Of a stretch of 20,596 nucleotides of DNA, positions 5,804 through 20,596 are shown one piece after another. Under the pieces are notes generated by a model, which saw only the letters and a list, made by a program, of their open reading frames with translations, did no database searches and had not been told where the DNA came from. Location of the stretch: contig JAUSKK010000003.1 of assembly GCA_030649345.1 (NCBI GenBank), positions 1 to 20,596 on the forward strand. The letters are read 5' to 3'. The stretch is from Candidatus Iainarchaeum sp. GTDB taxonomy: Archaea; Iainarchaeota; Iainarchaeia; Iainarchaeales; 0-14-0-20-34-12. Made by a program: the position numbers and the translations under genes. Every line of letters starts with the position of its first letter. Position 1 is the stretch's first letter.

Positions 5804-6340
5804 ATGCCTGGAGATAGACTTATTCGAAGACATGAACGCAGACCTATGGGCCCGGGCGTTTCTTCTCAGAACATGCCTTCAGGAATGCCTTCTTTTGAAC
5901 CGACCGATCGCCAAAAACCAGAAGTAGTTATTTCTTTAATGAAAAACGATATCCGTGCTTTGAATAGTGCTATTGCAATTATTTCTCAAAAAATGAAACA
6001 CTTAATTCGAAATGAAAAAATCTTAGGCCGAAATTTAGTTGTATTAAATAAAAAACTCCAGCAAGGAGTTTATTCCAAAGGCCCTGAAGGATCCTCTGGA
6101 TCTTCTTCGGAAGACCTTCAAGCTTTAACTGTTCAACTGGAAAAACAAAACCAAGAAATTCAATCTTTATCTAATCTAATGGCTGAACTGCGTACTTCGC
6201 TGGCTTCCCGCGAAGAAGTCTTGGAATTACGTCATGTAATTGATTCCATTAATCCTTTAGAATTTACGACCCGCGATGATGTCAAAGAATTAATTGCATT
6301 GGCTTTCGAAAAGAAAAAAACAATTGCTAAAGAAAAATAA
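5804..6340 (+). CDS. Hypothetical coiled-coil protein with a disordered basic/Pro-rich N-terminus
   Basis: 178-aa ORF with an ATG start. The N-terminal ~40 aa are low complexity (RRHERRPMGPGVSSQNMPSGMPS), followed by heptad-like helices (LQALTVQLEKQNQEIQSLSNLMAELRTSLASREEVLELR). No family recognised. Confidence 0.6.
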   Translation: MPGDRLIRRHERRPMGPGVSSQNMPSGMPSFEPTDRQKPEVVISLMKNDIRALNSAIAIISQKMKHLIRNEKILGRNLVVLNKKLQQGVYSKGPEGSSGSSSEDLQALTVQLEKQNQEIQSLSNLMAELRTSLASREEVLELRHVIDSINPLEFTTRDDVKELIALAFEKKKTIAKEK

Positions 6341-8052: not shown

Positions 8053-8601
8053 TTGGTTGTTATGCCAGTAAACGAAAAAATTGTCTTGGATACCATTAAG
8101 CAAATGAAAGAAGCCGGCTTAGAGGATTCCGTCATTTTAGCTACTTTAAAAGACATTGGCTTAACTGACTTGGAATCCAAGGAATTTTTAGCCAAAGCCA
8201 CCGGCAAATCAGAACCTTCGGTTCCGATACCTCCCACTAAAACTTTCAGCAAATCCGAAGAACCTAAAGAAGAATCTTTGGAAACCGAAGAAGAACCTAG
8301 TAAAGAAGATTCTGATCTCGACGATGAAGCACAAGAAGACGATTTAGACGATACTGCGCATGCAGTTACTCATGTAGCTTTGCAAGCACAAGGCCAAAAA
8401 TTGGATGACTTGCATGAAAAAGTTTCTGGTTTAGAAAAACCGCTTGAATTGACTCAAATTTTAGCAGAACTTCAATCCATTCGAAGAGACTTACAAGAAC
8501 TCAAAAAACAAGTCTCTGAATCCAAAGCCTTAAATGCAGCCACCCAAGACGTTATGGAAAAAGTTTTAGATGTGAATCGAAAGATTTTGAATAAACAGTA
8601 G
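8053..8601 (+). CDS. Hypothetical acidic coiled-coil protein
   Basis: 182-aa ORF as tracked, which starts at TTG 8053; the ATG at 8062 (MPVNEKIV...) is the more likely start. It has a small helical N-domain, a very acidic Glu/Asp/Ser linker (EEPKEESLETEEEPSKEDSDLDDEAQEDDLDD) and a C-terminal coiled coil (ILAELQSIRRDLQELKKQVSE). Confidence 0.65.
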   Translation: MVVMPVNEKIVLDTIKQMKEAGLEDSVILATLKDIGLTDLESKEFLAKATGKSEPSVPIPPTKTFSKSEEPKEESLETEEEPSKEDSDLDDEAQEDDLDDTAHAVTHVALQAQGQKLDDLHEKVSGLEKPLELTQILAELQSIRRDLQELKKQVSESKALNAATQDVMEKVLDVNRKILNKQ

Positions 8602-8857: not shown

Positions 8858-9520
8858 TTAAATGGCATGAATATTTTCCTTTTGGACTTCGCCTTTGTTT
8901 TCTTTTTTGCTTTTATGATCTTTGCTTTTTTCTTTATGACTGCTTGTGTCTTCTTTTTTGTCTTTATGCCCATGACTTCCTCCGCCCCCGCCAACTTTTC
9001 CAAATAATCCAAAAAAGCGATTAATAAATTCTTGAGTACCTTGAGATACTCTGGTCAAAATCGGCCGCGTTCTATATCCGCCTTTATTGAATACAATTTC
9101 TGAAGTTTTGTCTGCAATATTGCTGGACATGTCTTGAATGACTCCTATTCCAGGCGGTGTTGGATTTGCTTGTTCTACATCTTCTGCAATTCCTTGAATT
9201 AATTCTTGAGTTGTACTTTTCATTCCATTAACTACTTGCAGAATGCAAATTACTCCCAACAATAACATAAATGAATGCAAAGTAATCCAGCCATAGGCTG
9301 CATCCCAATAGGTTGGCACAATCATGGTGGCATAACCAATCAAAGTCAGCCAAGATAAACCGCCCCAAATAATTAAAATTATAAAAATAAAAAAGAATTT
9401 AATTTCCAATTCTTTGAACACAAATGCATTAATGTAAATTAAAATAAATAAAAGCCATGGACGCCACCAAATCATTTGGTCTTTCCATGGAATATTTTTG
9501 GTCTGATAAGCTTTACTCAT
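8858..9520 (-). CDS. Polytopic membrane protein (~4 TM) with a soluble C-terminal region and a Gly5 plus His/Lys-rich tail
   Basis: 220-aa ORF, the last gene of the co-oriented cassette. Hydrophobic helices include WLLFILIYINAFVF, FFFIFIILIIWGGLSWLTLIGY and ITLHSFMLLLGVICILQVV. The tail reads 'GGGGGSHGHKDKKEDTSSHKEKSKDHKSKKENKGE'. Confidence 0.65.
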   Translation of the reverse strand: MSKAYQTKNIPWKDQMIWWRPWLLFILIYINAFVFKELEIKFFFIFIILIIWGGLSWLTLIGYATMIVPTYWDAAYGWITLHSFMLLLGVICILQVVNGMKSTTQELIQGIAEDVEQANPTPPGIGVIQDMSSNIADKTSEIVFNKGGYRTRPILTRVSQGTQEFINRFFGLFGKVGGGGGSHGHKDKKEDTSSHKEKSKDHKSKKENKGEVQKENIHAI

Positions 9521-9544
9521 AATAGCATCCTTGTTTTGAATGAA

Positions 9545-9862
9545 TTAAAATCCACCCATTCCGCCGCCCATCATGCCCATGTCGCCGCCGGGCGCATACA
9601 TATCCGGCTCTTGTTCTTTGGCTTTAACTCCCAACAATAATGCTAAAATCATTAATCCAAATAAAATAAACGGCCAAAATTCATCAATGGAATTTCGGCT
9701 GACAAAAAACAAAACCAATGCAACCAACAATACAATCGTTGCCGACAAATTACGCAATCCTACAATTAACAAAATAATGGTTCCAAAAATTAGCCAATTT
9801 TGTCCAGTTTGCAAAGACAAGCCAACTAAAATAACTGCAATCAATAAAGTAAATGGATCCAT
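9545..9862 (-). CDS. Small 3-4 TM membrane protein with a Gly/Met-rich C-terminal tail
   Basis: 105-aa ORF, almost entirely hydrophobic helices, ending 'PDMYAPGGDMGMMGGGMGGF'. It lies 24 nt upstream of the next gene on the same strand. Confidence 0.65.
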   Translation of the reverse strand: MDPFTLLIAVILVGLSLQTGQNWLIFGTIILLIVGLRNLSATIVLLVALVLFFVSRNSIDEFWPFILFGLMILALLLGVKAKEQEPDMYAPGGDMGMMGGGMGGF

Positions 9863-9885
9863 ATTTTTTCATCTCCGTGTTAATA

Positions 9886-10146
9886 TTAATCTCTTAAGTG
9901 GTCTTCTCCGCCTACATCAGGGCCTGGCATTTTTTCTACAATATTTTTTCCAAAAAATGAAATCAAAAATAAAATTACTGGAATCCAGATAAGAATTGGG
10001 TGAGTAAAGAATCCTAAATAGGTAATAATGACTGCAAACAAAATAGCTAACTTAGCACTGCCCAATTGATTTTTAGCCCAGCCATAAACCCATACCAAAT
10101 AAAATAAAGAAAGAATAGTCTGCAAATCCGACCATAAATCAGCCAT
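9886..10146 (-). CDS. Small membrane protein (2-3 TM), paralog family 'AK-N-x-L-G-S-A'
   Basis: 86-aa ORF. The motif 'WAKNQLGSAKLAILFAVIITY' aligns with 'FVKNHVGTGPLGLAIMIGISW' (130-aa protein) and 'TVKGYLGSGMIPLLLSAILIY' (110-aa protein). Confidence 0.6.
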   Translation of the reverse strand: MADLWSDLQTILSLFYLVWVYGWAKNQLGSAKLAILFAVIITYLGFFTHPILIWIPVILFLISFFGKNIVEKMPGPDVGGEDHLRD

Positions 10147-10227
10147 AGGTTTTCACTCTATAAATAATACCTTTCTCTGAGTTTAAATACGTATGGCACG
10201 GTGTTGATTGCGCTTTCGCTTGTTTAA

Positions 10228-10560
10228 TTAATGTCTTTTGGTAACCATCATGGCAATGTTTAATCCCCAGATAATTACAGACAAGAAGTTGAATGCCAAT
10301 AGCACGTAAAAGAATACAAATATGCTGGTGGTTAAAAATGCATGTTTGATGACCAGTAAATAAATAAGTATTGCACTTAAAAGCAATGGAATCATTCCAC
10401 TGCCTAAATATCCTTTGACTGTAGAGTATAGCGTGAAAATTAAAATTAAGCGCATAATAATGTCTGCAGCTGGAAAAAACATCATAATCAAAGGAGGAAT
10501 GGCGGCCACTACAATAAAGCCTAACAATGCAAAAATAAACAAATTTCCTTTTGAATTCAT
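10228..10560 (-). CDS. Small membrane protein (~4 TM), same paralog family
   Basis: 110-aa ORF only 4 nt downstream of the 130-aa gene. It shares the 'VKGYLGSG' loop motif followed by a TM helix. Confidence 0.65.
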   Translation of the reverse strand: MNSKGNLFIFALLGFIVVAAIPPLIMMFFPAADIIMRLILIFTLYSTVKGYLGSGMIPLLLSAILIYLLVIKHAFLTTSIFVFFYVLLAFNFLSVIIWGLNIAMMVTKRH

Positions 10561-10564
10561 AATA

Positions 10565-10957
10565 TTACCTTAACATTCTTCCTCTGGCATGTGCTTGATG
10601 CATGGCGTGTTGTCTGGCTCTGTTTCGTTCAGCTACATCGGCTTGAGTTCCTTTGGGTGCTTCCATTCCATGCGGGGTAATGTGTTGTTGTCCCACAAAA
10701 AAGAAATCAATCAAGATTCCAGAAACTCCCATGGTTAATAGAGTGTACAATACGTATACTCCTCCAAAGAAAGACCAGGCATCGAATAAAATAAACCAAG
10801 AAATTCCAATCATAATGGCTAAACCTAAAGGCCCTGTTCCTACATGATTTTTTACAAACGAAATAATACTCAATAAAGCAAATATTTTCAAAGCCAAATT
10901 ATAGTCTTGGAATATTTCAGTAAAAAATAATGCAGTTAAAAAACTAAATTCAAACAT
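10565..10957 (-). CDS. Small membrane protein (3 TM) with a His/Arg-rich C-terminal tail, same paralog family
   Basis: 130-aa ORF 44 nt downstream of the giant gene. It carries the motif 'VKNHVGTG'. The tail reads 'HITPHGMEAPKGTQADVAERNRARQHAMHQAHARGRMLR'. Confidence 0.65.
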   Translation of the reverse strand: MFEFSFLTALFFTEIFQDYNLALKIFALLSIISFVKNHVGTGPLGLAIMIGISWFILFDAWSFFGGVYVLYTLLTMGVSGILIDFFFVGQQHITPHGMEAPKGTQADVAERNRARQHAMHQAHARGRMLR

Positions 10958-11001
10958 AAGATTCGTAGAAATTATAAATTTCTTTGTTTAAAATTGTTAC
11001 T

Positions 11002-12363
11002 TTATTCTGCAATGCACTTGAATTCAGAGTTATCTGGGGCAGTATTCATGGTTTGTTCTAATGCAGTAATTCGTGCCTGATCGTATACTTTCTTTTCATC
11101 CCAGTAAAACAAGATTTTGGTTCCGTCATTAATCATGCACATTTCACCAGTTTGCACCAATTCAAACACTTGGCTAATAGATCCAATTTGAGTTGTTCGA
11201 TTGGCTAAACTCAAAGGTTGGTCTTGGAATCCAGTATGTCCTGCGTTCAATACTTTGGGTTTATTGTTTCCTTCTCCTTGAGTTCTAAAACTATACGTTT
11301 CATTAAACGGAGTATAGACTACTGTTTTTAAGAAAACATTTCCTGTTTTGTCAATCTGGGGCCATTCTTGATAATATGTATTACTTGCTGGGTCTCTAGA
11401 ATCTTGAGTATTATTGAATACATTGGATACTGAAATTCCAGTAAAATCCAAACATCTTCCAGCACCAGTCCAGTAAGTTAACACATTTCCAATATTTTGA
11501 ATTTGATTTCCTGAATCCATTAATTGATAATTGGCTCTATAAGGATCATCGCTTGTTTCAGTTTGATTCATTTTTAATAAAATAGCGTGCGGGTTGTTGG
11601 GTGTAAATTGTATTCTGGCCTGCGTTCCATCTTCGTTTCTTTCAATCTCCATTACTTTTCCTCTATTTTCTATAATATCATTATTCATTTTTTGCAAGCT
11701 TTCTTCTTGCTTTACTTTAAAAGTAACCAGTGGATTGCTGGAATTAATGGGTGTAGTTTTTAAAGTTTCAATATCCCCTGTGCCTGCAATAACATAAATT
11801 TCTTGTCCTTCATTTTCGTAATTCACTCCATATCCTTGTCTTCCATCAGCGCTATTCAATCCAACTTTTCCATCAAATGGCAAATAATAAAATGGGTGAT
11901 CGGGTACAGGATTTTGTATTCTGTCAAATACTGCATTTATGTTTACATTGCTGGCTCCGTTTCTGAAAAATTTCCATTCTTTGTTTCCAAAATCTATTTC
12001 CAAGTTTACTTTATATTTTCCAGGCACTCCAATATTGCTGGTGTCTGTGTATTTTCCTTTGAATTTGAATACTGTTGAATCTCCAAATATTTCTTTTAAT
12101 CCATCTTCGCTTTGCTTAAACCAATCTGGCGTATCTATCACACTATCCAATCCATAGGTTTCCACAAAGTCGGATTGGAAGTCTGTATTGGGATTGTCTT
12201 TCATTAACAAGGCTTCAAACGAAACAGTTTTATTTAAAGTTTGAATATCTGGAATTTCATTTGTCCACTGAACAGTACTTGAGTTAACTGCAAATACTGA
12301 AATTATTGGAACACCTGCAGCTTCTTTGGTAGTGTAAGGCAAAATACATTCTTCGGCTATTCC
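11002..12363 (-). other. Conserved C-terminal module (~450 aa) shared with the paralog at 19132-20596
   Basis: Collinear matches, giant vs paralog. ECILPYTTK / DCEPYTTT. FEALLMKDNPNTDFQSDF / FNAFLMEDGYSEDFRADF. PGKYKVNLEIDF / AGKYKVTLKVTY. DHPFYYLPFDGKVGLNSADGRQGYGVNYENE / DSPFYYMPFDGLLGKDTPNGRQGYGVNFREQ. RCLDFTG / RCKDFTG. GNVFLKTVVYTP / GDLYLGTVFFTP. ISQVFELVQTGEMCM / IQKVIQLVKEGQVCV. The C-termini are KCIAE / LCITD. Confidence 0.8.
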
Positions 12364-15300
12364 TGATTCTCCTTCGATTTGGAATATTTGGCTGGCACTT
12401 CGATTGTTTGCAATTCCTGGCGTAGATTCTTTAACTCCTGCTCCAAAAGCATACACTTTTCCTGGACTTAAATTATAAAAAGTAGTATTTGAAGTTAGAG
12501 TTCCATTGGCTGGCACAGTAATTGGAACTATTGCACTTTGATCTCTGGATCTATCTTGTAATGTAATAGCTGAAAATTGAATTTGTGCTGTTTGTGCTTG
12601 GGTTGTTTTATTTTCCACAGTTGCAGTTATAACTGCCGTTGTTTCCGTGATTTGGGTTTCCACTATTTTGACTCCAATATTTCCAACAGCTATTTCTAAA
12701 TTATTGGGCTGAGCTCCAGCTGCAGCATCTGCAATGGCTCCAGTTATTGGATTGGCTGGACAATTTAAGCTAGTTTCATTTTGTTCCAAAAATGTTTTTA
12801 ATGCATTCATTTTTTTGTTAACCATGATCGCAAATTGAGTTGCATCACAATATACTGCATTTTCATTACTGGCATCACAAGTATTGGCTTCAATTGCAGT
12901 ATTTCCAGTCCAAGTCCAATCAAACTTTACTTTAGGCATACTCGCATTTGTTCCAGTGTCTCCTTGAATTACTCCACGCATACAAGTTTCAGTATCTCTA
13001 AAGCTTGGTCTTTCTGCTGGCTTGGGTTTGGTGGCTAATTTTATGTGGTATTTGACTTCGCGTTCTTTAGTTATTCTTCCAGAACAATCTCCATTGCTGA
13101 AACTAACTTTTCCAGCAGCAAATTCTTGAGGTGTAATTTCATCTGCAAATGCTTCTTCGTCATTTTCGTCTTCTTCACAATATAAGTCATATTCTCCTTG
13201 TGCTTCTGGGCTGTGGGCTAAATCTCCAGCATAAATTCGTTCAGCGTATTTTAATTTTAATATTCCAAATTCATCTTTTACTGAACTAACTCCAGTTGTG
13301 TTGGTGATCTTTAATGCACTTCCGGTTTCAGCTCCATCTTGTTTTAAGTCAATTTCTTTTCTTCCTAATGAAACTGGAATATTGGCAATATCCCATTCAG
13401 AATTGCTTAGTTCTGTAAAGGTATGTTCTGTTAAGTCACTATTATCTAAATTCCCAGAACCGATTTGTGTAACTGGAACAATTCTGGCCATAGTCACAAA
13501 TTCCTCTTCACAATCTGGCCACATTATGATTGTTATAACCAATGCAGATGTTGCTAATATTCCTGCAGCCACCCAGCCAGCTACTGGAATTGTTGCAACT
13601 GTTGCAGCTAAATATAAAATTGGCACTGCAAAAGCTGCCGCTCCAGCACCAGCTCCAACACCTACGCCAATCCAATTTTCATTTTCTTCATCAATATGGT
13701 CTGCTACGCATTTATTAGTTTGAATAGTCACTCGTTCGAAAATATTTTTATTGGTTAAAATTGCAGTATCTTGTGCTTGCGGTCCAATGATTTGGAATGC
13801 GTAATTGCTTAAAGTAATTTGTTCCGAAGAATTGGGTTGAACTTTGACATCCAGTCTTTTAATTTCTTGCCCTGGCCCGGATTCAATAGAACTTTTGGCT
13901 TTAATGGGGATAGTATAAACTCCAGCCAAGTCTCTTCTTTCTACAACAACTTCACTTTCTGCACTTGCTCCAGTTCCAAATAATGTAACTCTTTGATTTT
14001 GCGGGCTGGCAATGGCAATTCTTCCTTCTGAAGTTCCACCGGAACAACCTGGATCATTTTTGCAAAAGTCTAAAGTAATTCTAGCCTGTGCACAATCTGG
14101 AACCAAAGAAACTTTGAATCTTATTTCTTCGGTGTCTGAAGCAATCTCTGGATTGGTTGTATCAATATTAATGCATTGTTCTAAATTCACAATATATGCT
14201 TTGACTGTAATATTTTCTGGAGTGCTTCCAATCAATGGTTGTTCTGCATTTGTTTCTGGATTACTAATAAATCCTTTAATGGTAATGGTGAATCCAACTT
14301 TTTGTCCAATAAATTCTGCATTCGGTCTAAAGCCTAATTGCAAAGAATAATCTTGATCTGTTCGAATTTTTTCCAACAAAGTATTGGTTTGTCCATTGCG
14401 TAAAGGAATAATTGATCCTTCAGAATTCGGGCCAGTCATAGTTAAAGTGGCTGTTCCTCCAGCTGTTGGTCCTTCAGTCCAATTCAATGTAACTTTTAAT
14501 CCATCCAATTCTACAGGCACATCATTGAGTGTACAATTGTTTGTTAGTTTGAACTCTGTAACTTCTTCAATATCTTTGGTTACAATATCCCATACTGGAA
14601 TCTTGTTTCCGTTTAAAACAATACAACCGCTTGCAGGTCTTCCAGCAAACTGTACAGATCCTTGCACTGGAATTTGGAAAGCATAAGCATTATTCACTCC
14701 ATCTAAGAAAGCCAAACCAGTTAATTGAGTAGTAAATGTTTCTGTACTTTCTTGCATTCGCATTTCAGCGTCTCTAGTTAAAGCAGCCAAAGCAGTAAAG
14801 TTTTGAGTTCCATCCACTGAAATGATTTGCAATGCTTCATCTTGACTTTGAGTTTCCAGTAAAGCCTGCATTCTTCCGGTATCAAATATTCCGGGTGTTG
14901 CTCTTTGAATTTCTCCAAATCTTAAATTTTGAATTCGAATATTTGCTCCAGCTCGGTTATGCAAACTAAACGTTTGAGATTCGTCTGTTCGAGTTCTAGT
15001 ATTCAAGTTCATGAATTGAATTTCTTCCGGCAAAAAATCTACCACATTGGTATCTGTATTCAAAACTAATTCGCCTTCCACATATCCTTCTTTGATGGCT
15101 GAAACAATGACTTGAGCATTCGGAGGCAATCCAGGAATAGTGAATAAAACTTGTCCAGTTAAATTTGGATTCGTTCCAGATATTTGAGTTCCGTTTGAAA
15201 TTAATGTAGGATTTAATTCTCCGGGTAATAATGTTCTAACTTCTACTCGTACTCCATCTAAATTAAATTCTCTGGTTTGTTCTGAACTTCCTCTAGTTTG

Positions 15301-18225
15301 AGGTTCAATTCCTTTAATTTGTAATTGCAATTGTGTATCCGAATACGCCGGCAATACTTCTCCTAAAGGTGCAATTTTTTCAATGCTTAATTCTTTTTCA
15401 GACAAAACTCTTAATGCAATAATTTTTTCAAATACAATTTGATCATTTCCAAATAAAGTAATTTTTAAAGTTGTAGCTTTGGCTTTCACTGGTTTAAAAG
15501 AAAGCATTCCTTGAATTTGTTTATTGATGGTGAATTCACCCAATGCACTGGCAGTCACACTTTTTTTATCCGAAGAATTAATTCTGCTGTCTTGTCCATC
15601 TGCATTCACTAACTCTAAAGAACCTACTTCTAAAACTGATTGGTTTTGATTATTGATTTCTTCTACCAATAATCGCATGTTTTCATATTCTGTTCTGGAA
15701 ACATTTCTTAAATTAAATTTTAAATTATAGTTTGAAAAATTTCTTACATTATATCCTTGGGTTACTGGAAAAATTAAGTCTGCTCCAATCCCTGGAATAT
15801 ATCCTTTGAGTTGTTCTCCGCTCCAGCAAAAATTATTGGTTGTAGAATCACAAGCAGAATCTTCGCCTTCTTTGAATTGTGCAGTATATGTTTGAGCATA
15901 AGGTTCATTCACCAATTCAGCAGCACTCGGAGCTAAAGCTAAAACATTATCTAAAGGATCTCTTAAATACGAATTACTGGTATTGGCTCCCCATGCTCTA
16001 TAAAATAAATCTAAATTTTCCAATTCAGCTTCAGCATTTACATGAATTCCTATCCCTACACTGTATTCAATAGGTTCTACATCTATCCAGGAAATATTCA
16101 CCCATTTGGCATTGCTTAAAGTTTCAGTTTCTCCATCCCAGCCAGTATTTTGATTGTAGGTAGTGTATCTTTTTACAATTGGATTTCCGCCTGCATTAAT
16201 TTTGTCAAAAATAACATACAAAGCATCATTCTCAATTCTGTCTGTGTTTCCTACTCTAAAATGAATTCCTCCATTCCGCAAATCTTGTCCTGCTGGATAC
16301 GTTACTTTGAGTCTTGCTTCATAATTCTGTCCAGCCAATAATTGGGTTACACTTTCTTGTCCGAATTCATCAAAAATTCCTTCCAACACAATTTCAGGTC
16401 CTCTTTGATCTCCTTTTCCAAAAAACTGTGGTTTCATTACTCCAGTAACAGCATATTCTTCTTCTGCCCATAAATCAATCACTTGACTTTGCCAAGTCAT
16501 ATAATCTGGATGAGAAATTCGAACATAAATTTTAGTATCTGCTTTTACTTCAATTGAATCTTCGCCTGTAACCAAAGGTCTTTCTCCTTGCAATACACTT
16601 CTTCCATTCCAAGTAAACACTTCATATTTGGCTCGGCCATCATTAATGGTTAAATTGTCTTCAAATTTGACTGCTCGAATATTCAAACCAGCTGTTCCTA
16701 CCTGCATGGTCACCGTAAATTCATTAATAGTTTCCAATTTGATTTCTTTAGAATCTGCTGCAGTTCCTCCTTGAGATCTGCTTTTGACTGCAAAAGCAAA
16801 TACTTCTTCAGTTAAGCTTCCTAAAATAAATTCAACATTTCCATTGACATCAGTAACTTTTTGATTATCTACAGCACTTGCATCACTGACTTCAACTATA
16901 GCTCCATTGCTTTTTTTTCTAAACATGACTCGTGCATTTACAACTTTATCATTGGCTTCGTCTTGGACATGCACTTTAGTTTTTCCTGAATTTAAAGAAG
17001 TAATTTTATCCAAGCGTAAAGTTAAATCTGCGTTAGCATTGGTTGTACTTATTTCTGCGGGAAAATATCCTTCATTGACTCCCCCAATTTTTTTAGCACC
17101 AATCAAGTATTCTTTTTGATCTGTAATTGGAAATTCTACTTGAGTTTGAGTAGCAGTAATTGTTTTTTCGCTTAACACAGTTCCTTCTCTTGCATCCTTG
17201 AGTACAACTATGGCTCCAATCACATTGCTTTGATTGGCTTTATCTAAAACTCTTACTTTGATTCTGCCCAATAAATTTTTGCTAACCCTTAATTCTACTG
17301 GAGTTCTTTGCCCTGAATTAACTTGAATTCCTTCTACATTGCTTGAACCATATTTGTCGGTTGTATCTTCTACACTTACAGTATATCTTCCGGGTGCTAT
17401 TTCCATTCGCACAGTTCCATATTCGCCGGTAGTTTCTGAATAATTTTCTCCAGTTGTTTTCTGTGCTCTGACTGTAAAGCTTGTATCTGTAACTAAATTT
17501 CCAGAACCATCGAGTACACTTACATCGATAAATCCATTGGGTACTGTTCGTTCTTGTAAATTAATTATTTTTTCAGTTTCAGTTTCAGAAAAATTTGCAT
17601 TGCTTTCTTCAAAATCATCGCTGTTCACTTGAACACTTAAATTTCCGCAATTCAATGGAGTTTCAATTTCCATGACTCCATCTTGATCTTCATCACTGGC
17701 TCTGAATGGCGCAATCGTTGTATTGGAACACGAAAAAGTTGCTTGAATATTTTTTCCAGTAATGAGTCCTTGAGAATCCTGGAACAAAATGCTTTTGGTT
17801 CTGGTTTCTAAAAATTTTTCCAAAATTGCAATCGTTTGCGTTAAATCAGTTTCTCCGATTGCAAAATCTTGCTCAAATAGCTGAAATTGTTTTCCGTCTA
17901 ATTCCATTTCATTAATTTTAATTTTAATAATAGAATTGGCTTTGGCTGCCAATACAATTTTTCCAGCTGAATCTGTGTGTCCTTGTTTCCAGTCCCCAGC
18001 CAAAGAAGTATAACTGACTTCCACATTATTTAATGGATTTCCTGTGCTGGTGGTAACTGTAAAAATAGCTTTAACTTGTGCTCCAGTTTCTCCGCTTAAA
18101 TTGGCATTGGGTAATACAAAAAAGTAAACCAAGGCTGCTAAAACAATTAAGCCCAAGACTGCCAATGCTTTCTTGTTTTGAGTTAACTTAGAAAGACTAT
18201 CTGCCAGAGTTTCAGCAAATCCCAT
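11002..18225 (-). CDS. Giant (2407-aa) membrane-anchored, Cys- and sequon-rich surface protein; no characterised family recognised
   Basis: An uninterrupted 7.2-kb ORF in AT-rich DNA is very unlikely by chance. It has an N-terminal anchor (KKALAVLGLIVLAALVYFFVLP), tandem beta-sandwich repeats and many N-x-S/T sequons. An internal double hydrophobic segment spans aa ~1518-1569, and the C-terminal module is shared with the neighbouring paralog. Confidence 0.9.
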   Translation of the reverse strand: MGFAETLADSLSKLTQNKKALAVLGLIVLAALVYFFVLPNANLSGETGAQVKAIFTVTTSTGNPLNNVEVSYTSLAGDWKQGHTDSAGKIVLAAKANSIIKIKINEMELDGKQFQLFEQDFAIGETDLTQTIAILEKFLETRTKSILFQDSQGLITGKNIQATFSCSNTTIAPFRASDEDQDGVMEIETPLNCGNLSVQVNSDDFEESNANFSETETEKIINLQERTVPNGFIDVSVLDGSGNLVTDTSFTVRAQKTTGENYSETTGEYGTVRMEIAPGRYTVSVEDTTDKYGSSNVEGIQVNSGQRTPVELRVSKNLLGRIKVRVLDKANQSNVIGAIVVLKDAREGTVLSEKTITATQTQVEFPITDQKEYLIGAKKIGGVNEGYFPAEISTTNANADLTLRLDKITSLNSGKTKVHVQDEANDKVVNARVMFRKKSNGAIVEVSDASAVDNQKVTDVNGNVEFILGSLTEEVFAFAVKSRSQGGTAADSKEIKLETINEFTVTMQVGTAGLNIRAVKFEDNLTINDGRAKYEVFTWNGRSVLQGERPLVTGEDSIEVKADTKIYVRISHPDYMTWQSQVIDLWAEEEYAVTGVMKPQFFGKGDQRGPEIVLEGIFDEFGQESVTQLLAGQNYEARLKVTYPAGQDLRNGGIHFRVGNTDRIENDALYVIFDKINAGGNPIVKRYTTYNQNTGWDGETETLSNAKWVNISWIDVEPIEYSVGIGIHVNAEAELENLDLFYRAWGANTSNSYLRDPLDNVLALAPSAAELVNEPYAQTYTAQFKEGEDSACDSTTNNFCWSGEQLKGYIPGIGADLIFPVTQGYNVRNFSNYNLKFNLRNVSRTEYENMRLLVEEINNQNQSVLEVGSLELVNADGQDSRINSSDKKSVTASALGEFTINKQIQGMLSFKPVKAKATTLKITLFGNDQIVFEKIIALRVLSEKELSIEKIAPLGEVLPAYSDTQLQLQIKGIEPQTRGSSEQTREFNLDGVRVEVRTLLPGELNPTLISNGTQISGTNPNLTGQVLFTIPGLPPNAQVIVSAIKEGYVEGELVLNTDTNVVDFLPEEIQFMNLNTRTRTDESQTFSLHNRAGANIRIQNLRFGEIQRATPGIFDTGRMQALLETQSQDEALQIISVDGTQNFTALAALTRDAEMRMQESTETFTTQLTGLAFLDGVNNAYAFQIPVQGSVQFAGRPASGCIVLNGNKIPVWDIVTKDIEEVTEFKLTNNCTLNDVPVELDGLKVTLNWTEGPTAGGTATLTMTGPNSEGSIIPLRNGQTNTLLEKIRTDQDYSLQLGFRPNAEFIGQKVGFTITIKGFISNPETNAEQPLIGSTPENITVKAYIVNLEQCINIDTTNPEIASDTEEIRFKVSLVPDCAQARITLDFCKNDPGCSGGTSEGRIAIASPQNQRVTLFGTGASAESEVVVERRDLAGVYTIPIKAKSSIESGPGQEIKRLDVKVQPNSSEQITLSNYAFQIIGPQAQDTAILTNKNIFERVTIQTNKCVADHIDEENENWIGVGVGAGAGAAAFAVPILYLAATVATIPVAGWVAAGILATSALVITIIMWPDCEEEFVTMARIVPVTQIGSGNLDNSDLTEHTFTELSNSEWDIANIPVSLGRKEIDLKQDGAETGSALKITNTTGVSSVKDEFGILKLKYAERIYAGDLAHSPEAQGEYDLYCEEDENDEEAFADEITPQEFAAGKVSFSNGDCSGRITKEREVKYHIKLATKPKPAERPSFRDTETCMRGVIQGDTGTNASMPKVKFDWTWTGNTAIEANTCDASNENAVYCDATQFAIMVNKKMNALKTFLEQNETSLNCPANPITGAIADAAAGAQPNNLEIAVGNIGVKIVETQITETTAVITATVENKTTQAQTAQIQFSAITLQDRSRDQSAIVPITVPANGTLTSNTTFYNLSPGKVYAFGAGVKESTPGIANNRSASQIFQIEGESGIAEECILPYTTKEAAGVPIISVFAVNSSTVQWTNEIPDIQTLNKTVSFEALLMKDNPNTDFQSDFVETYGLDSVIDTPDWFKQSEDGLKEIFGDSTVFKFKGKYTDTSNIGVPGKYKVNLEIDFGNKEWKFFRNGASNVNINAVFDRIQNPVPDHPFYYLPFDGKVGLNSADGRQGYGVNYENEGQEIYVIAGTGDIETLKTTPINSSNPLVTFKVKQEESLQKMNNDIIENRGKVMEIERNEDGTQARIQFTPNNPHAILLKMNQTETSDDPYRANYQLMDSGNQIQNIGNVLTYWTGAGRCLDFTGISVSNVFNNTQDSRDPASNTYYQEWPQIDKTGNVFLKTVVYTPFNETYSFRTQGEGNNKPKVLNAGHTGFQDQPLSLANRTTQIGSISQVFELVQTGEMCMINDGTKILFYWDEKKVYDQARITALEQTMNTAPDNSEFKCIAE
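13519..13677 (-). other. Internal Gly/Ala-rich double hydrophobic segment (predicted TM hairpin) splitting the giant protein into ~1470-aa and ~840-aa parts
   Basis: aa ~1517-1569 read 'NWIGVGVGAGAGAAAFAVPILYLAATVATIPVAGWVAAGILATSALVITIIMW'. That is two ~22-aa hydrophobic stretches joined by a very short 'TIP' turn. Acidic residues flank both sides (DEENEN / PDCEEEF). Confidence 0.6.
16429..18078 (-). other. Tandem beta-sandwich repeats (carboxypeptidase-regulatory-like / Ig-like), about 5-6 copies (giant protein aa ~50-599)
   Basis: Recurrent ~90-aa units have the typical pattern 'v.V.d..g.pl.nA.V.......g...tTd..G...f.l..G.Y.v.v'. Examples are 'GFIDVSVLDGSGNLVTDTSFTVRAQ...GEYGTVRMEIAPGRYTVSVED', 'GRIKVRVLDKANQSNVIGAIVVLKD' and 'GKTKVHVQDEANDKVVNARVMF...TDVNGNVEF'. 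Confidence 0.6.
18109..18174 (-). other. N-terminal signal-anchor of the giant protein, fitting a loose class III (archaeal type IV pilin-like) signal-peptide pattern
   Basis: '...TQNKKA|LAVLGLIVLAALVYFFVLP': basic residues, then Ala, then a ~20-aa hydrophobic stretch. 'KALAVL' fits the pattern [KRDE][GA][ALIFQMVED][ILMVTAS]x3. Confidence 0.35.
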
Positions 18226-18248
18226 ATATAGTATATATTGTATTATTG

Positions 18249-18259
18249 TTTTTAAATTT
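18249..18259 (-). promoter_or_regulatory. TATA-like box (minus strand AAATTTAAAAA) upstream of the giant gene
   Basis: It lies about 24-34 nt upstream of the ATG at 18225, consistent with a leaderless or short-leader archaeal transcript. Confidence 0.4.
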
Positions 18260-18431
18260 GTGTTTTTACGTGAAAAAGTGAGTTTTTTTGGGTTATTGCT
18301 GTTTGTACCATTTTTCGTATTACTTGTGGTTTATGGCAAATATAAGCATTACTTAACTGTATTTTTCTTTACTTGAATGATTTGAAAAAGGTAATGAAAC
18401 ATAACAAATAAAAGGTTTTGACTTCATTATA

Positions 18432-18752
18432 TTGGATATGTCCAAGACTTCAAAACAAAGACTGACAGTCCAGACAATTCTTCAATTGCTTGAAAAAAAT
18501 AAATCCTCTTTTGCATCATTGGGTGTGGAAAAGCTTGGTTTGTTTGGTTCTGTTTTGCATAATCAGCAAAAGTCTGATAGTGATCTGGATTTTTTGGTTT
18601 CGTTTAATCATCCTACTTTTGACAATTATATGAACTTAAAGTTTTCTTTGGAGAAACTTTTTCATCGAAAAATAGATCTGGTTACTGAAAAAAGTCTTAA
18701 GCCATCGCTGAGTTATATTAAACAGGAAGTTCAATATGTCTCATTCACCTAA
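18432..18752 (+). CDS. mntA: Minimal nucleotidyltransferase (MNT), MntA-like antitoxin
   Basis: ~105-aa ORF. The tracked start is TTG 18432, and the ATG at 18438 is more likely. It has the hallmark '[21 protein letters not shown]' (GS-x9-11-DxD pol-beta-type NTase motif). It overlaps the downstream HEPN gene by 17 nt. Confidence 0.8.
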
Positions 18753-19077
18753 GCTTTACTTACAAGATATTTTAGAGTCCATTTCTAAGATCGAGTCTTA
18801 TTCTAAAAATTTATCCAAAGAAAAGTTTGCAGACAATTCTTTGGTGAAAGATGCCGTTGTTCGAAATTTGGAAATTATTGGAGAAGCCGTTAAACAACTT
18901 CCAGTAGAACTAAAGGAAAAGCATTCTGAAATTGACTGGAAAAAGATTGCAGGCTTGCGAGATATTTTAATTCATGCTTATTTTGGAATTGATGTTGACA
19001 TTCTTTGGGATATTGTTCAAAACAAGCTTCCGGAATTAAAAAAAGCTGTTCAGGAAATGAAGGCTGATTTAAAATAA
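18736..19077 (+). CDS. hepT: HEPN-domain (DUF86/HepT-like) toxin
   Basis: 113-aa ORF with the R-x4-H-x-Y motif '[12 protein letters not shown]' in the expected C-terminal third. It is translationally coupled to the MNT gene. Confidence 0.8.
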
Positions 19078-19131
19078 TAATTTAGTTTACTGGAAAAAGT
19101 TAAAAAAAGAAGAAAAATTGAATTAGCTGAT

Positions 19132-20596
19132 TTAGTCTGTAATACACAATTCAGCCAAGTCTTCTCTGGAAACTGTAGCTAATTCTTGTACCAATGCTCT
19201 ATAACCTACTCCGCCGGTTAAAGTAGTTCCTTCGGTTCCAGTTATTCCTTCTGTTCCTGCCAATATGGCTGCTGGATTCCAGAAGAATCTTGCATTTGCA
19301 CTATTGCCGACTCCTTCTACACAAACTTGTCCTTCTTTAACCAATTGAATTACTTTTTGGATGGATTTAATTTGTTCAGATGGGAAGTCTCCGCCAATAG
19401 CTAATTGTTCTGTGACTTCTGTATTGCTTGCATTACTTCCTTGTTTAATAAATTGAGTTCCATCGTCTTGTGCGTCCACCAATCTTAATGTTCCGGCTGT
19501 TCCTTCTTGGGGTGTAAAGAATACTGTTCCTAAGTATAAGTCTCCTGCTTTTTTGATGTCACAGAATTCTAAACCATAATGGCTTGTGCTTAATCCTGCA
19601 CCTGAACATTTAGTGACTCCAACTCCAGCATGCAAGTCTGGACTGTCTCTGTAAGCTGTAGCTGAATCTCTTCCTGTAAAGTCTTTACATCTTAAAGCAA
19701 TGGAATTCCAGTAAGCAATATTTTCTCCAGTTAACTGCGGTTCTCCGTTTAAGGTTAAACTATAATATGCAAATGCTTTGTCTGATTTTCCGCCAGCAAT
19801 TTTTAATACTACTGGAGTTGCTTTGCTGGGACTAAATATTACATTGATTTGTTGTTGAGCTGGTCTTCGTTCTACATTCAATACTAAACCTCGGGTTGAT
19901 TGATCTGTATTTAATTTTTTGAAATCATTTTCTACACTGGTCAAAACCCATCCATTCGGAATTGGATTACTGTTGGCAATTGTGCTGGATAAAATAGTTT
20001 CAGCTAAATCACTAGGCTCATTGAATGTAATGCTTTCAATACTTTGTTCTCTGAAGTTTACTCCATATCCTTGTCTTCCATTGGGTGTATCTTTTCCTAA
20101 TAATCCATCGAATGGCATGTAATAAAATGGACTGTCTGGATCAGGTGCTTGCAGTCTTTCTAAGATTACTTCAATGACTGCTTTGCTGTCTGCTTCTGTT
20201 CCATTTAATCCTAAACTCCAAGGCTTGCTTTTATCGTACGTTACTTTGAGTGTAACTTTATATTTTCCTGCTCTAATTGGTGCATTGGGTGCCTCTAAGA
20301 ATGGACTGACAAATTTGAATTTGTTAGGGTTCGCAAAGTAATTGTTTAATAAATTTCTAAAGTCTGCTTGGCTTGGGAAATCAAAGAATGATTTGGTTAA
20401 AGCATAATCAATAAAGTCTGCTCTAAAGTCTTCACTGTAACCATCTTCCATTAAAAATGCATTAAAGCTGGTTAATTCTGTTGCTTTATTGAAAGCGTCT
20501 CTAGCTTGTCCATTTCCTTCATTGGCTTGCGCGAACTGGGTTAATCTTGTTGTAGTGTAAGGTTCACAGTCTGTGCTGGTAACTCCTGCATTTCCT
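19132..20596 (-). CDS. Second giant surface-protein paralog; only the C-terminal ~488 aa are in the window (5' end beyond the window edge)
   Basis: The frame stays open from the tracked Met (20451) to nt 20596. My translation of 20452-20595 is ...GNAGVTSTDCEPYTTTRLTQFAQANEGNGQARDAFNKATELTSFNAFL, followed by MEDGY... These extra residues still align with the 2407-aa protein, so the Met at 20451 is internal. Confidence 0.8.
   Translation of the reverse strand, partial: GNAGVTSTDCEPYTTTRLTQFAQANEGNGQARDAFNKATELTSFNAFLMEDGYSEDFRADFIDYALTKSFFDFPSQADFRNLLNNYFANPNKFKFVSPFLEAPNAPIRAGKYKVTLKVTYDKSKPWSLGLNGTEADSKAVIEVILERLQAPDPDSPFYYMPFDGLLGKDTPNGRQGYGVNFREQSIESITFNEPSDLAETILSSTIANSNPIPNGWVLTSVENDFKKLNTDQSTRGLVLNVERRPAQQQINVIFSPSKATPVVLKIAGGKSDKAFAYYSLTLNGEPQLTGENIAYWNSIALRCKDFTGRDSATAYRDSPDLHAGVGVTKCSGAGLSTSHYGLEFCDIKKAGDLYLGTVFFTPQEGTAGTLRLVDAQDDGTQFIKQGSNASNTEVTEQLAIGGDFPSEQIKSIQKVIQLVKEGQVCVEGVGNSANARFFWNPAAILAGTEGITGTEGTTLTGGVGYRALVQELATVSREDLAELCITD

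Follow-up and report, generated by a model that had tools for sequence, protein, structure and literature searches.

The stretch analysed here (the window) comprises the whole of contig JAUSKK010000003.1, 20,596 nucleotides (nt) long, from an assembly of Candidatus Iainarchaeum sp. (GCA_030649345.1; Iainarchaeota, or Diapherotrites, within DPANN). Its minus strand carries a block in which the genes for two giant proteins, g2 (cut by the contig end) and g3, are followed by a cassette of five genes for small membrane proteins, S5 to S1 (Table 1). That the giant family makes up a conserved unit with the five-gene cassette is well founded, and equally so is the finding that the proteins of the block fall outside any described family, apart from generic sandwich domains. 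Giants and cassette are probably co-transcribed, judging from gene spacing and strand, and the predicted proteins suggest that the block probably builds a main cell-surface structure. The reading that we favour, albeit tentatively, is of a phylum-wide envelope gene block encoding a heteromeric surface structure with a membrane base of small proteins.

Conservation of the giant–cassette linkage

One genome per GTDB species was scanned with the S5 alignment by means of S5-specific peptide patterns, which gave 27 loci. Where the label reaches the phylum it is always 'Candidatus Iainarchaeum', and the other loci are labelled only as archaeon. The order giant(s)–S5–S4–S3–S2, followed by the divergently transcribed gene cc182 and then u505, was found in 27 of 27 loci as far as the flank allows, with the cassette present once per genome and never apart from a giant. 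An independent metagenome scan used the coiled-coil protein cc178 as probe, the u505 alignment offering no stretch conserved enough for this purpose, and returned 80 loci, 26 of which have at least 1.5 kb past cc182. Cassette and a giant of the window family occur together in 24 of these 26, and the two exceptions (L052 and L068) retain cc178, u505 and cc182 while both the S cassette and the Gc-type giants are missing. This shared pattern of presence and absence of the Gc-type giants and the cassette is the strongest indication here that they form one unit. The initial annotation had predicted such a fixed partnership and had named uniqueness to this contig as the result that would speak against it; the partnership held in both scans, and the association is conserved across Iainarchaeota genomes and metagenome loci.

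A separate observation concerns the two exceptional loci, which are related to each other and in which an unrelated open reading frame (ORF) of >2503 aa with an HExxH motif (MHETDHF) adjoins cc182 (L052, 6471-14257; L068, 13628-15505). It has no Pfam match and does not match the giant profiles even at E ≤ 10.

The first homologues of the giants were found on a 347-kb contig of another Diapherotrites metagenome-assembled genome and on one Logan contig, both with tandem giants and size-matched small genes, and both with an orthologue of every small protein of the window in identical order. In the wider set, S5 has orthologues in every locus, S2 in every locus with flank, and the S1 position is filled by a gene of 105-154 aa in every locus examined; 23 of these S1-position genes, the window copy included, connect by BLAST at E ≤ 1e-3. 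S3 is 65% identical to its orthologue in L003 and 44% in L001, and the gene order is unchanged although the proteins have diverged to 24-30% identity. The contigs of P0005 and P0081 stop before the downstream genes.

The minus-strand layout, ORF lengths and gaps first reported for the window were all reproduced, the gaps being 44 nt (g3-S5), 4 nt (S5-S4), 81 nt (S4-S3), 23 nt (S3-S2) and 24 nt (S2-S1). Median gaps across loci are 59 nt for g3-S5, 1 nt for S5-S4, 47 nt for S4-S3 and 10.5 nt for S3-S2, so the S4-S3 gap is elsewhere also wider than those on either side of it, and a 4-nt overlap of the S5 and S4 genes is common in other loci. In the window, the S4-S3 gap contains a TTTATA element about 20 nt ahead of the S3 start, which makes an internal promoter plausible at this point.

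The chromosomal position of the block is identical in >50 loci, and its place beside a family B DNA polymerase (PolB) and an M24 peptidase of the methionine aminopeptidase type (MetAP) argues for a chromosomal housekeeping region. No relatives were found in viral contigs, and the neighbours (PolB, MetAP, a DsbA-like protein, an ATP-binding cassette (ABC) transporter) include no mobile-element gene, coupling protein, relaxase or integrase. Vertical inheritance and a chromosomal location are well founded. In the lineage of L001 and L016, what comes after the block (giants to u505) is an ABC transporter and not cc178–PolB, so that cc178 travels with PolB (and MetAP) and not with the giants; cc182 adjoins the giants even where the PolB synteny is broken.

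Small membrane proteins of the cassette

Each of S1-S5 has two to four hydrophobic segments of transmembrane length, in agreement with their first description as polytopic membrane proteins. Comparison with hhalign matched S5 to S4 at 97.4% probability (E 1e-11) and S5 to S3 at 91.9% (E 7e-7), the S4-S3 comparison being weaker, and on these profile alignments S5, S4 and S3 are paralogs with a common core of helix-[KR]xxLG-helix. S2 is unrelated to S3-S5 (0.6% against S4), and S1 is the most divergent member of the cassette. The VK[NG]x[LV]G motif, earlier ascribed to the small proteins in general, is real but limited to the three paralogs, i.e. three of the five. Invariant residues in S5 (D18, K24 and D84) and the nearly invariant K72 of S4 lie in or near membrane helices.

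Searches of S1-S5 against Pfam, NCBIfam and PHROGs gave no match. The S5, S4 and S3 profiles likewise matched nothing among the PDB sequences, solved pili of the conjugative and Ced/Ted types included; sequence comparison has little power for membrane proteins this short. Small antiporter subunits of the Mrp/Mbh type were considered for the cassette and dropped, as there was no Pfam match even at E ≤ 1.

The giants form an ancient family of three orthologous groups

The giants had been called orphans, and a word-indexed search indeed found only 5 matches, but exhaustive searching with a profile of the C-terminal region revealed a family of 757 cluster representatives (50% identity), of which 483 reach E ≤ 1e-30. 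Complete members are 2200-3250 aa long, always carry the family-defining module at the C-terminus, come mostly from Diapherotrites, and are annotated as 'carboxypeptidase regulatory-like domain-containing' or 'hypothetical'; the NCBI name of g3 itself is 'carboxypeptidase-like regulatory domain-containing protein' (Candidatus Diapherotrites). All-against-all BLAST separates three ancient orthologous groups, g1, g2 and g3, in an order kept in L117, L118, L001, L003 and the window. The fragment at the window end was assigned to group g2 from its identity to the middle giant (g2) of L117 (44.7%) and to the first giant of L003 (40%). It shares 30% identity over 408 aa (E 2e-43) with the C-terminus of g3, confirming that the two giants of the window are paralogous.

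The complete arrays of L117 and L118 consist of a Cys-rich membrane protein, three giants, and then S5-S1. The Cys-rich protein 5' of g1 has 555-594 aa (L117, 105-1772; L118, 1-1407), is 28% identical between the two genomes and has no Pfam match. Some genomes have, in addition, a 165-aa polytopic protein between g1 and g2 (L118, 9410-9907; L001, 211-714). Both are possible further members of the block.

Pfam analysis of 19 giants detected solely sandwich domains: CarboxypepD_reg in 19 of 19, Big_1 in 13, SpaA in 11, MG4 in 9 and bMG3 in 5. AlphaFold predicted aa 520-1518 of g3 as an all-beta chain of sandwiches (predicted local distance difference test, pLDDT, 80), for which Foldseek returned multi-immunoglobulin (Ig) chains, i.e. 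hydin-like proteins, complement C3/C5, alpha-2-macroglobulin and PrgB (E 1e-18 to 1e-10); with TM scores of 0.1-0.2, these matches are generic. Together the domain profiles and the model indicate that the sandwiches of the first ectodomain are of Ig, prealbumin and macroglobulin type. This ectodomain also contains conserved pairs of cysteines. The macroglobulin-domain matches had raised the idea of a thioester protein, which was ruled out by the absence of the CxEQ motif from 22 giants; no thioester or CUB domain was detected either.

The C-terminal region (aa 1573-2407) was modelled with a pLDDT of 77 and a predicted TM score of 0.65, as a low-confidence disordered linker, a Cys-containing helical piece, an Ig/fibronectin type III sandwich (aa ~1850-1949) and the terminal module, which has a pLDDT of ~90. 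The module is predicted to be a mixed alpha/beta domain of about 450 aa. Pfam gave no match to the C-terminal region, and in PDB and BFVD Foldseek found a match for the single sandwich only (query-normalised TM score ≤ 0.12), leaving the terminal module without a counterpart there. No S-layer Pfam family was found in the 19 giants and no S-layer chain among the top 50 Foldseek PDB matches for either model, and neither Pfam nor Foldseek detected a lectin, protease or toxin domain. This agrees with the earlier statement that the block shows no catalytic or transporter signature: in the databases searched by profile and Foldseek, none of the proteins matched a characterised enzyme, transporter, S-layer or adhesin family.

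Conservation is fairly even along the giants, with the terminal module among the best-conserved stretches, a pattern that would be surprising for fast-changing, host-specific adhesins. A hypervariable C-terminal domain or variable downstream cassettes, as in polymorphic toxins (PTS) or hypervariable recognition modules of the VARTIG-like kind, were not seen, the same five genes lying downstream everywhere.

Predicted membrane anchoring and topology of the giants

Nearly all giants have an N-terminal hydrophobic segment. In g3 this anchor (aa 20-38) follows a short basic tail, which we read as cytoplasmic. Many giants, though not g3 of the window, have the motif LEDKWYxxLDKI...IPIYKVIDPIDKVxPSF ahead of the anchor, a stretch that would likewise be cytoplasmic. 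A class III (pilin-like) signal at the N-terminus (KK-A-LAVL in the window) was considered and dropped, as the homologues do not conserve it.

A second hydrophobic element, missed in the initial annotation, lies at aa 1519-1572 of g3. It consists of two glycine-rich hydrophobic arms, and its site is fixed between the motifs LTNxxLxExVxVxAxxCxW and GGLxGGxFGxDPC...DYVINL. The sequence of this hairpin suggests two membrane helices with a tight turn. In homologues, the stretch between the arms ranges from 5 to about 400 aa. In giants with an enlarged insert (L011, L018, L020, L022, L025, L027, L001 g2 and L003 g1, aligned to g3 aa 1519-1572) the arm-to-arm segment is Ala/Ser/Thr/Gln-rich and coiled-coil-like, and some copies carry dense Cys clusters (for example CSGACCPDHCTPTCSGCAC).

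Thirteen cysteines are invariant among 19 homologues and are found on both sides of the hairpin, suggesting that both large parts of the protein lie outside the cell and that the number of membrane crossings between them is even. The extracellular features first described for g3 were borne out as regards the anchor, the beta-sandwiches and the conserved cysteines, whereas its 'dense' sequons proved to be only mildly enriched (35 against 26 ± 4.7 in shuffled sequences, p about 0.04). Sandwich domains, invariant cysteines on either side of the hairpin and this mild sequon excess together point to an extracellular location.

Neighbouring genes

The u505 protein aligns over 284 columns with P0009, a DUF87/HerA_C ATPase, at 97.2% probability (hhalign, E 3e-11), and the u505 profile retrieved the same protein (PF01935, PF05872) at E 1.7e-6 from 5.8 billion sequences; word-indexed searches for u505 gave 3-4 matches. 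Further matches are to DUF87 in 7 of 21 orthologues and to HerA-like YjgR in PDB (E 0.03), and the nearest active relatives are bacterial proteins of the YjgR/DUF853 type. The window copy itself has no Pfam match. In the alignment with P0009, the Walker A sequence GATGTGKT corresponds to GGERKNRI in u505 and the Walker B sequence DEAH to PKAEH, and Walker A/B are conserved in none of 61 orthologues (21 + 40). These alignments indicate that u505 is a strictly conserved pseudo-ATPase of HerA fold, which would be unable to hydrolyse ATP in the usual way. Matches to TrbE (E 0.063) and, for one orthologue, CedD (E 0.046) are very weak. The genomic context of P0009, among bacterial cell-wall genes, was considered and is uninformative on the Iainarchaeota block.

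In cc182, a small helical domain at the N-terminus is joined by an acidic linker to a coiled coil at the C-terminus. Against Pfam and PDB, the cc182 and cc178 profiles returned nothing beyond coiled-coil noise; a second conserved motif of cc178 is VIDSINPLE. With respect to the block, cc182 and u505 may be cytoplasmic partners or mere neighbours. The PolB gene is about 1200 aa long in L006 (5495-9160), L007 (7202-10867), L024 (5145-8768) and L068 (5914-9726) and ~800 aa elsewhere, which suggests that the long copies carry an intein or other insertion.

The remaining genes of the window encode the M24 peptidase, the DsbA-like protein, PolB and the two coiled-coil proteins; no tRNA or Rfam feature was found in the window. 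The DsbA-like protein attracts interest in view of the 13 cysteines that are invariant in the giants; in the other genome loci, none was seen close to the block. The 906-nt space between g2 and g3 holds an MNT/HepT pair that had been overlooked. The corresponding gap in L001 (9276-9813) holds a different two-gene pair, encoding small proteins of 93 and 83 aa on the opposite strand, and this intergenic space seems to receive small two-gene cassettes repeatedly.

Table 1. Features of the window, with positions on the forward strand
Feature	Positions	Strand	Basis or description
g2, C-terminal 487 aa	19132-20596	-	Frame open to window end, cut by contig end
g3 giant, 2407 aa	11002-18225	-	ORF; best matches are cassette-proximal giants of other loci
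g3 predicted N-terminal membrane anchor, aa 20-38	18112-18168	-	Hydropathy peak 2.9
g3 first ectodomain, aa 39-1518, ~13 beta-sandwich domains	13672-18111	-	Pfam, AlphaFold, Foldseek
g3 Gly/Ala-rich hydrophobic hairpin, aa 1519-1572	13510-13671	-	Hydropathy, homologue alignment
g3 C-terminal region, aa 1573-2407, 835 aa	11005-13509	-	Profile search, AlphaFold
g3 terminal module, aa ~1962-2407, ~450 aa	11005-12342	-	Family-defining; profile search
S5, 130 aa	10565-10957	-	3 hydrophobic helices, basic C-terminal tail
S4, 110 aa	10228-10560	-	Polytopic membrane protein
S3, 86 aa	9886-10146	-	Membrane protein; shortest paralog with [KR]xxLG loop
S2, 105 aa	9545-9862	-	3 helices; Gly/Met-rich C-terminal tail (GGDMGMMGGGMGGF)
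S1, 220 aa	8858-9520	-	Membrane protein; long Gly- and Lys-rich C-terminal extension in window copy
cc182, soluble	8053-8601	+	Transcribed divergently from cassette; conserved in 24 genome loci
u505, 505 aa	6361-7878	-	HerA/DUF87-like P-loop fold, without Walker A and B
cc178, coiled-coil protein	5804-6340	+	Nearly invariant helix (RNEKILGRNLIVLNKK)
MNT/HepT toxin-antitoxin pair	18432-19077	+	In 906-nt space between g2 and g3
DsbA/thioredoxin-like domain protein, 589 aa	1455-3224	-	Window ORF

Proposed assembly and alternative explanations

In the arrangement that we favour, g1, g2 and g3 would be made as membrane proteins, each fixed in the membrane of its own cell at two places, by the N-terminal anchor and by the glycine-rich hairpin about 60% along the chain. 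Each would display two parts outside: about 13 Ig/macroglobulin-like sandwiches forming an arch, and a C-terminal arm with the 450-aa module at its end. The three giants could then combine into a single heteromeric structure on the cell surface, for instance a canopy, long fibres or an S-layer-like coat. S1-S5, expected to be co-transcribed 3' of g3, would be embedded in the membrane as a base packing against the anchor helices of the giants and either serve as a platform or help with assembly and insertion. As the three giants are distinct, equally old and kept in order since before the phylum diversified, we infer that they most likely form a heteromeric assembly and are not interchangeable adhesin variants; the double anchoring combined with tiny polytopic partners points in turn to a membrane base or assembly aid. 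A bolder version, which we regard as doubtful, is an Iainarchaeota-specific envelope machine: a doubly anchored giant heterotrimer, set in a ring or bundle of the five small proteins, would be the main surface structure and mediate cell contact or exchange, perhaps coupled to a dead HerA-like ring and a coiled-coil protein, with no part taken from known secretion, pilus or S-layer systems.

Several observations weigh against the proposed envelope structure. PolB and MetAP are also syntenic downstream in most loci, so that part of the conserved order may reflect slow genome rearrangement and not function, and conserved order is weaker evidence than was initially assumed. The S5 probe would miss genomes with a very divergent cassette or none, and 27 of 27 loci is therefore not a phylum-wide census. 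The top Foldseek matches contain no similarity to a known S-layer protein. The Cys clusters in the hairpin insert suit an extracellular loop and a metal-binding cytoplasmic loop equally, which makes the topology uncertain. Finally, u505 and cc182 persist without giants and cassette; their membership in the system is uncertain and they may be unrelated to it.

One alternative, which we consider unlikely, is an apparatus for contact with a host or partner cell: the giants would reach the other cell, the hairpin or terminal module would engage it, and the small proteins would form a platform or channel. The organism belongs to DPANN, and for cultivated DPANN archaea Ig-fold-rich surface proteins and lectin-like proteins have been proposed to act in attachment (10.1101/2023.10.27.564410). 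The giants are long Ig-chain proteins, their glycine-rich hydrophobic hairpin could in principle enter another membrane, and by our estimate about 3% of the genome (roughly 1.2 Mb) is given over to the block. Host-range determinants, however, usually vary at the tip, whereas these giants are ancient orthologues with even conservation and a conserved terminal module, and no lectin, protease or toxin domain was detected in them. In addition, episymbiosis is not established for Iainarchaeota, and the literature searched is silent on the point. Such a contact role is compatible with the envelope structure that we favour, as a coat can also make contact.

The data could also be explained without any system, if the giants acted independently and S1-S5 were unrelated small membrane proteins that happen to lie downstream in a slowly rearranging region. 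The synteny reaching unrelated housekeeping genes in most loci fits this explanation, as does the lack of relationship of S2 and S1 to S3-S5. Chance neighbourhood nevertheless appears improbable, given the shared strand, the short gaps and frequent overlaps, and an order that stays constant across proteins at 24-30% identity. The block moreover survives where downstream synteny is broken, its single cassette per genome is always accompanied by a giant, and giants and cassette are jointly absent from L052 and L068.

The third alternative is a degenerate machinery of the conjugation or Ced/Ted type, in which a u505 ring of the HerA/VirB4 superfamily, S1-S5 as subunits analogous to VirB2/B3/B6 or CedA/A1/A2, and PrgB-like adhesins would now act as a static scaffold or in uptake. 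In Gram-positive conjugation operons, adhesin genes precede those for small membrane proteins, which an ATPase-like gene follows, a layout that resembles the present one, and the HerA/DUF87-type fold of u505 with its very weak TrbE and CedD matches, together with the Ig domains of PrgB among the Foldseek matches to the ectodomain, would fit this origin. This explanation is very unlikely, since u505 has lost Walker A and B in all orthologues and cannot power transport, has its nearest active relative among YjgR/DUF853-type proteins and not VirB4, and stays where giants and cassette are absent, while sequence searches matched none of S1-S5 to pilins, VirB3, VirB6 or CedA in Pfam and NCBIfam, nor S3-S5 in PDB, the locus is chromosomal and fixed beside PolB, has no gene for a coupling protein, a relaxase or an integrase, and the similarity to PrgB is no more than that generic to Ig domains.

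Significance and comparison with known systems

To our knowledge, no member of the Iainarchaeota has an established cell-surface protein. For DPANN archaea as a whole, none has been determined experimentally (10.1101/2023.10.27.564410). We found no description of the cluster in the literature searched, which covered surveys of archaeal 'dark matter' and studies of DPANN cell surfaces. With a share of roughly 3% of a ~1.2-Mb genome, a kept order and mostly undescribed families, the block is an obvious first target for asking what the Iainarchaeota envelope consists of, and whether and how these cells touch others. It also yields a new conserved 450-aa module, predicted to be extracellular and represented by 757 sequence clusters, and a new paralogous family of mini membrane proteins, while u505 provides a clean case of a HerA-like protein strictly conserved despite the loss of its ATPase motifs. 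Giant Ig-rich surface proteins of DPANN archaea and tandem giant genes in small genomes are already known kinds; the novelty lies in the fixed trio of giants, in the cassette, in the terminal module and in the dead HerA-like neighbour.

Alpha-2-macroglobulin and complement C3 share with the giants a chain of macroglobulin-type sandwiches (MG4, bMG3 and Foldseek matches), but the giants lack the thioester motif, and a TM score of 0.1 reflects repeated-domain similarity only. The prgA-prgB-prgC ... prgJ genes of pCF10 and the Ced/Ted systems resemble the block in having adjacent Ig-domain surface proteins, small membrane proteins and a protein of the HerA/VirB4 superfamily. They differ from it in that u505 is without catalytic motifs, that DNA-processing genes are missing from a locus that is fixed and vertically inherited, and that the ATPase-like u505 gene is kept where the rest is missing.

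The S-layers of Sulfolobales are two-component structures of SlaA and SlaB with a separate membrane anchor. In common with the giants, both these S-layer proteins and the putative Ig-rich ones of DPANN archaea (NEQ300, Micr_00292 and MJ1_0160; 10.1101/2023.10.27.564410) are large, extracellular, Ig-like and probably glycosylated; in these systems as in the window, the genes adjoin those for membrane attachment, and conservation is limited to a narrow lineage. The window-type giants differ in their size of 2300-3250 aa, in the two membrane anchors predicted for each and in forming three conserved paralogs. Unlike SlaA/SlaB, the giants would have five tiny polytopic proteins as partners in place of one stalked anchor.

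Tandem giant extracellular proteins in small genomes are reportedly also found as the SPEARE giants of Nanohaloarchaeota. A similar case is that of Giant1-5 of Apilactobacillus kunkeei (PMC12863079), reportedly likewise consecutive giant surface-protein genes with repeated beta-sandwiches that occupy a few percent of the genome, which is small. Neither group is related in sequence to the giants of the window, and neither is known to be accompanied by a fixed set of small membrane proteins. The Iainarchaeota paralogs, in contrast, are ancient, with phylum-wide orthologues of nearly constant length.

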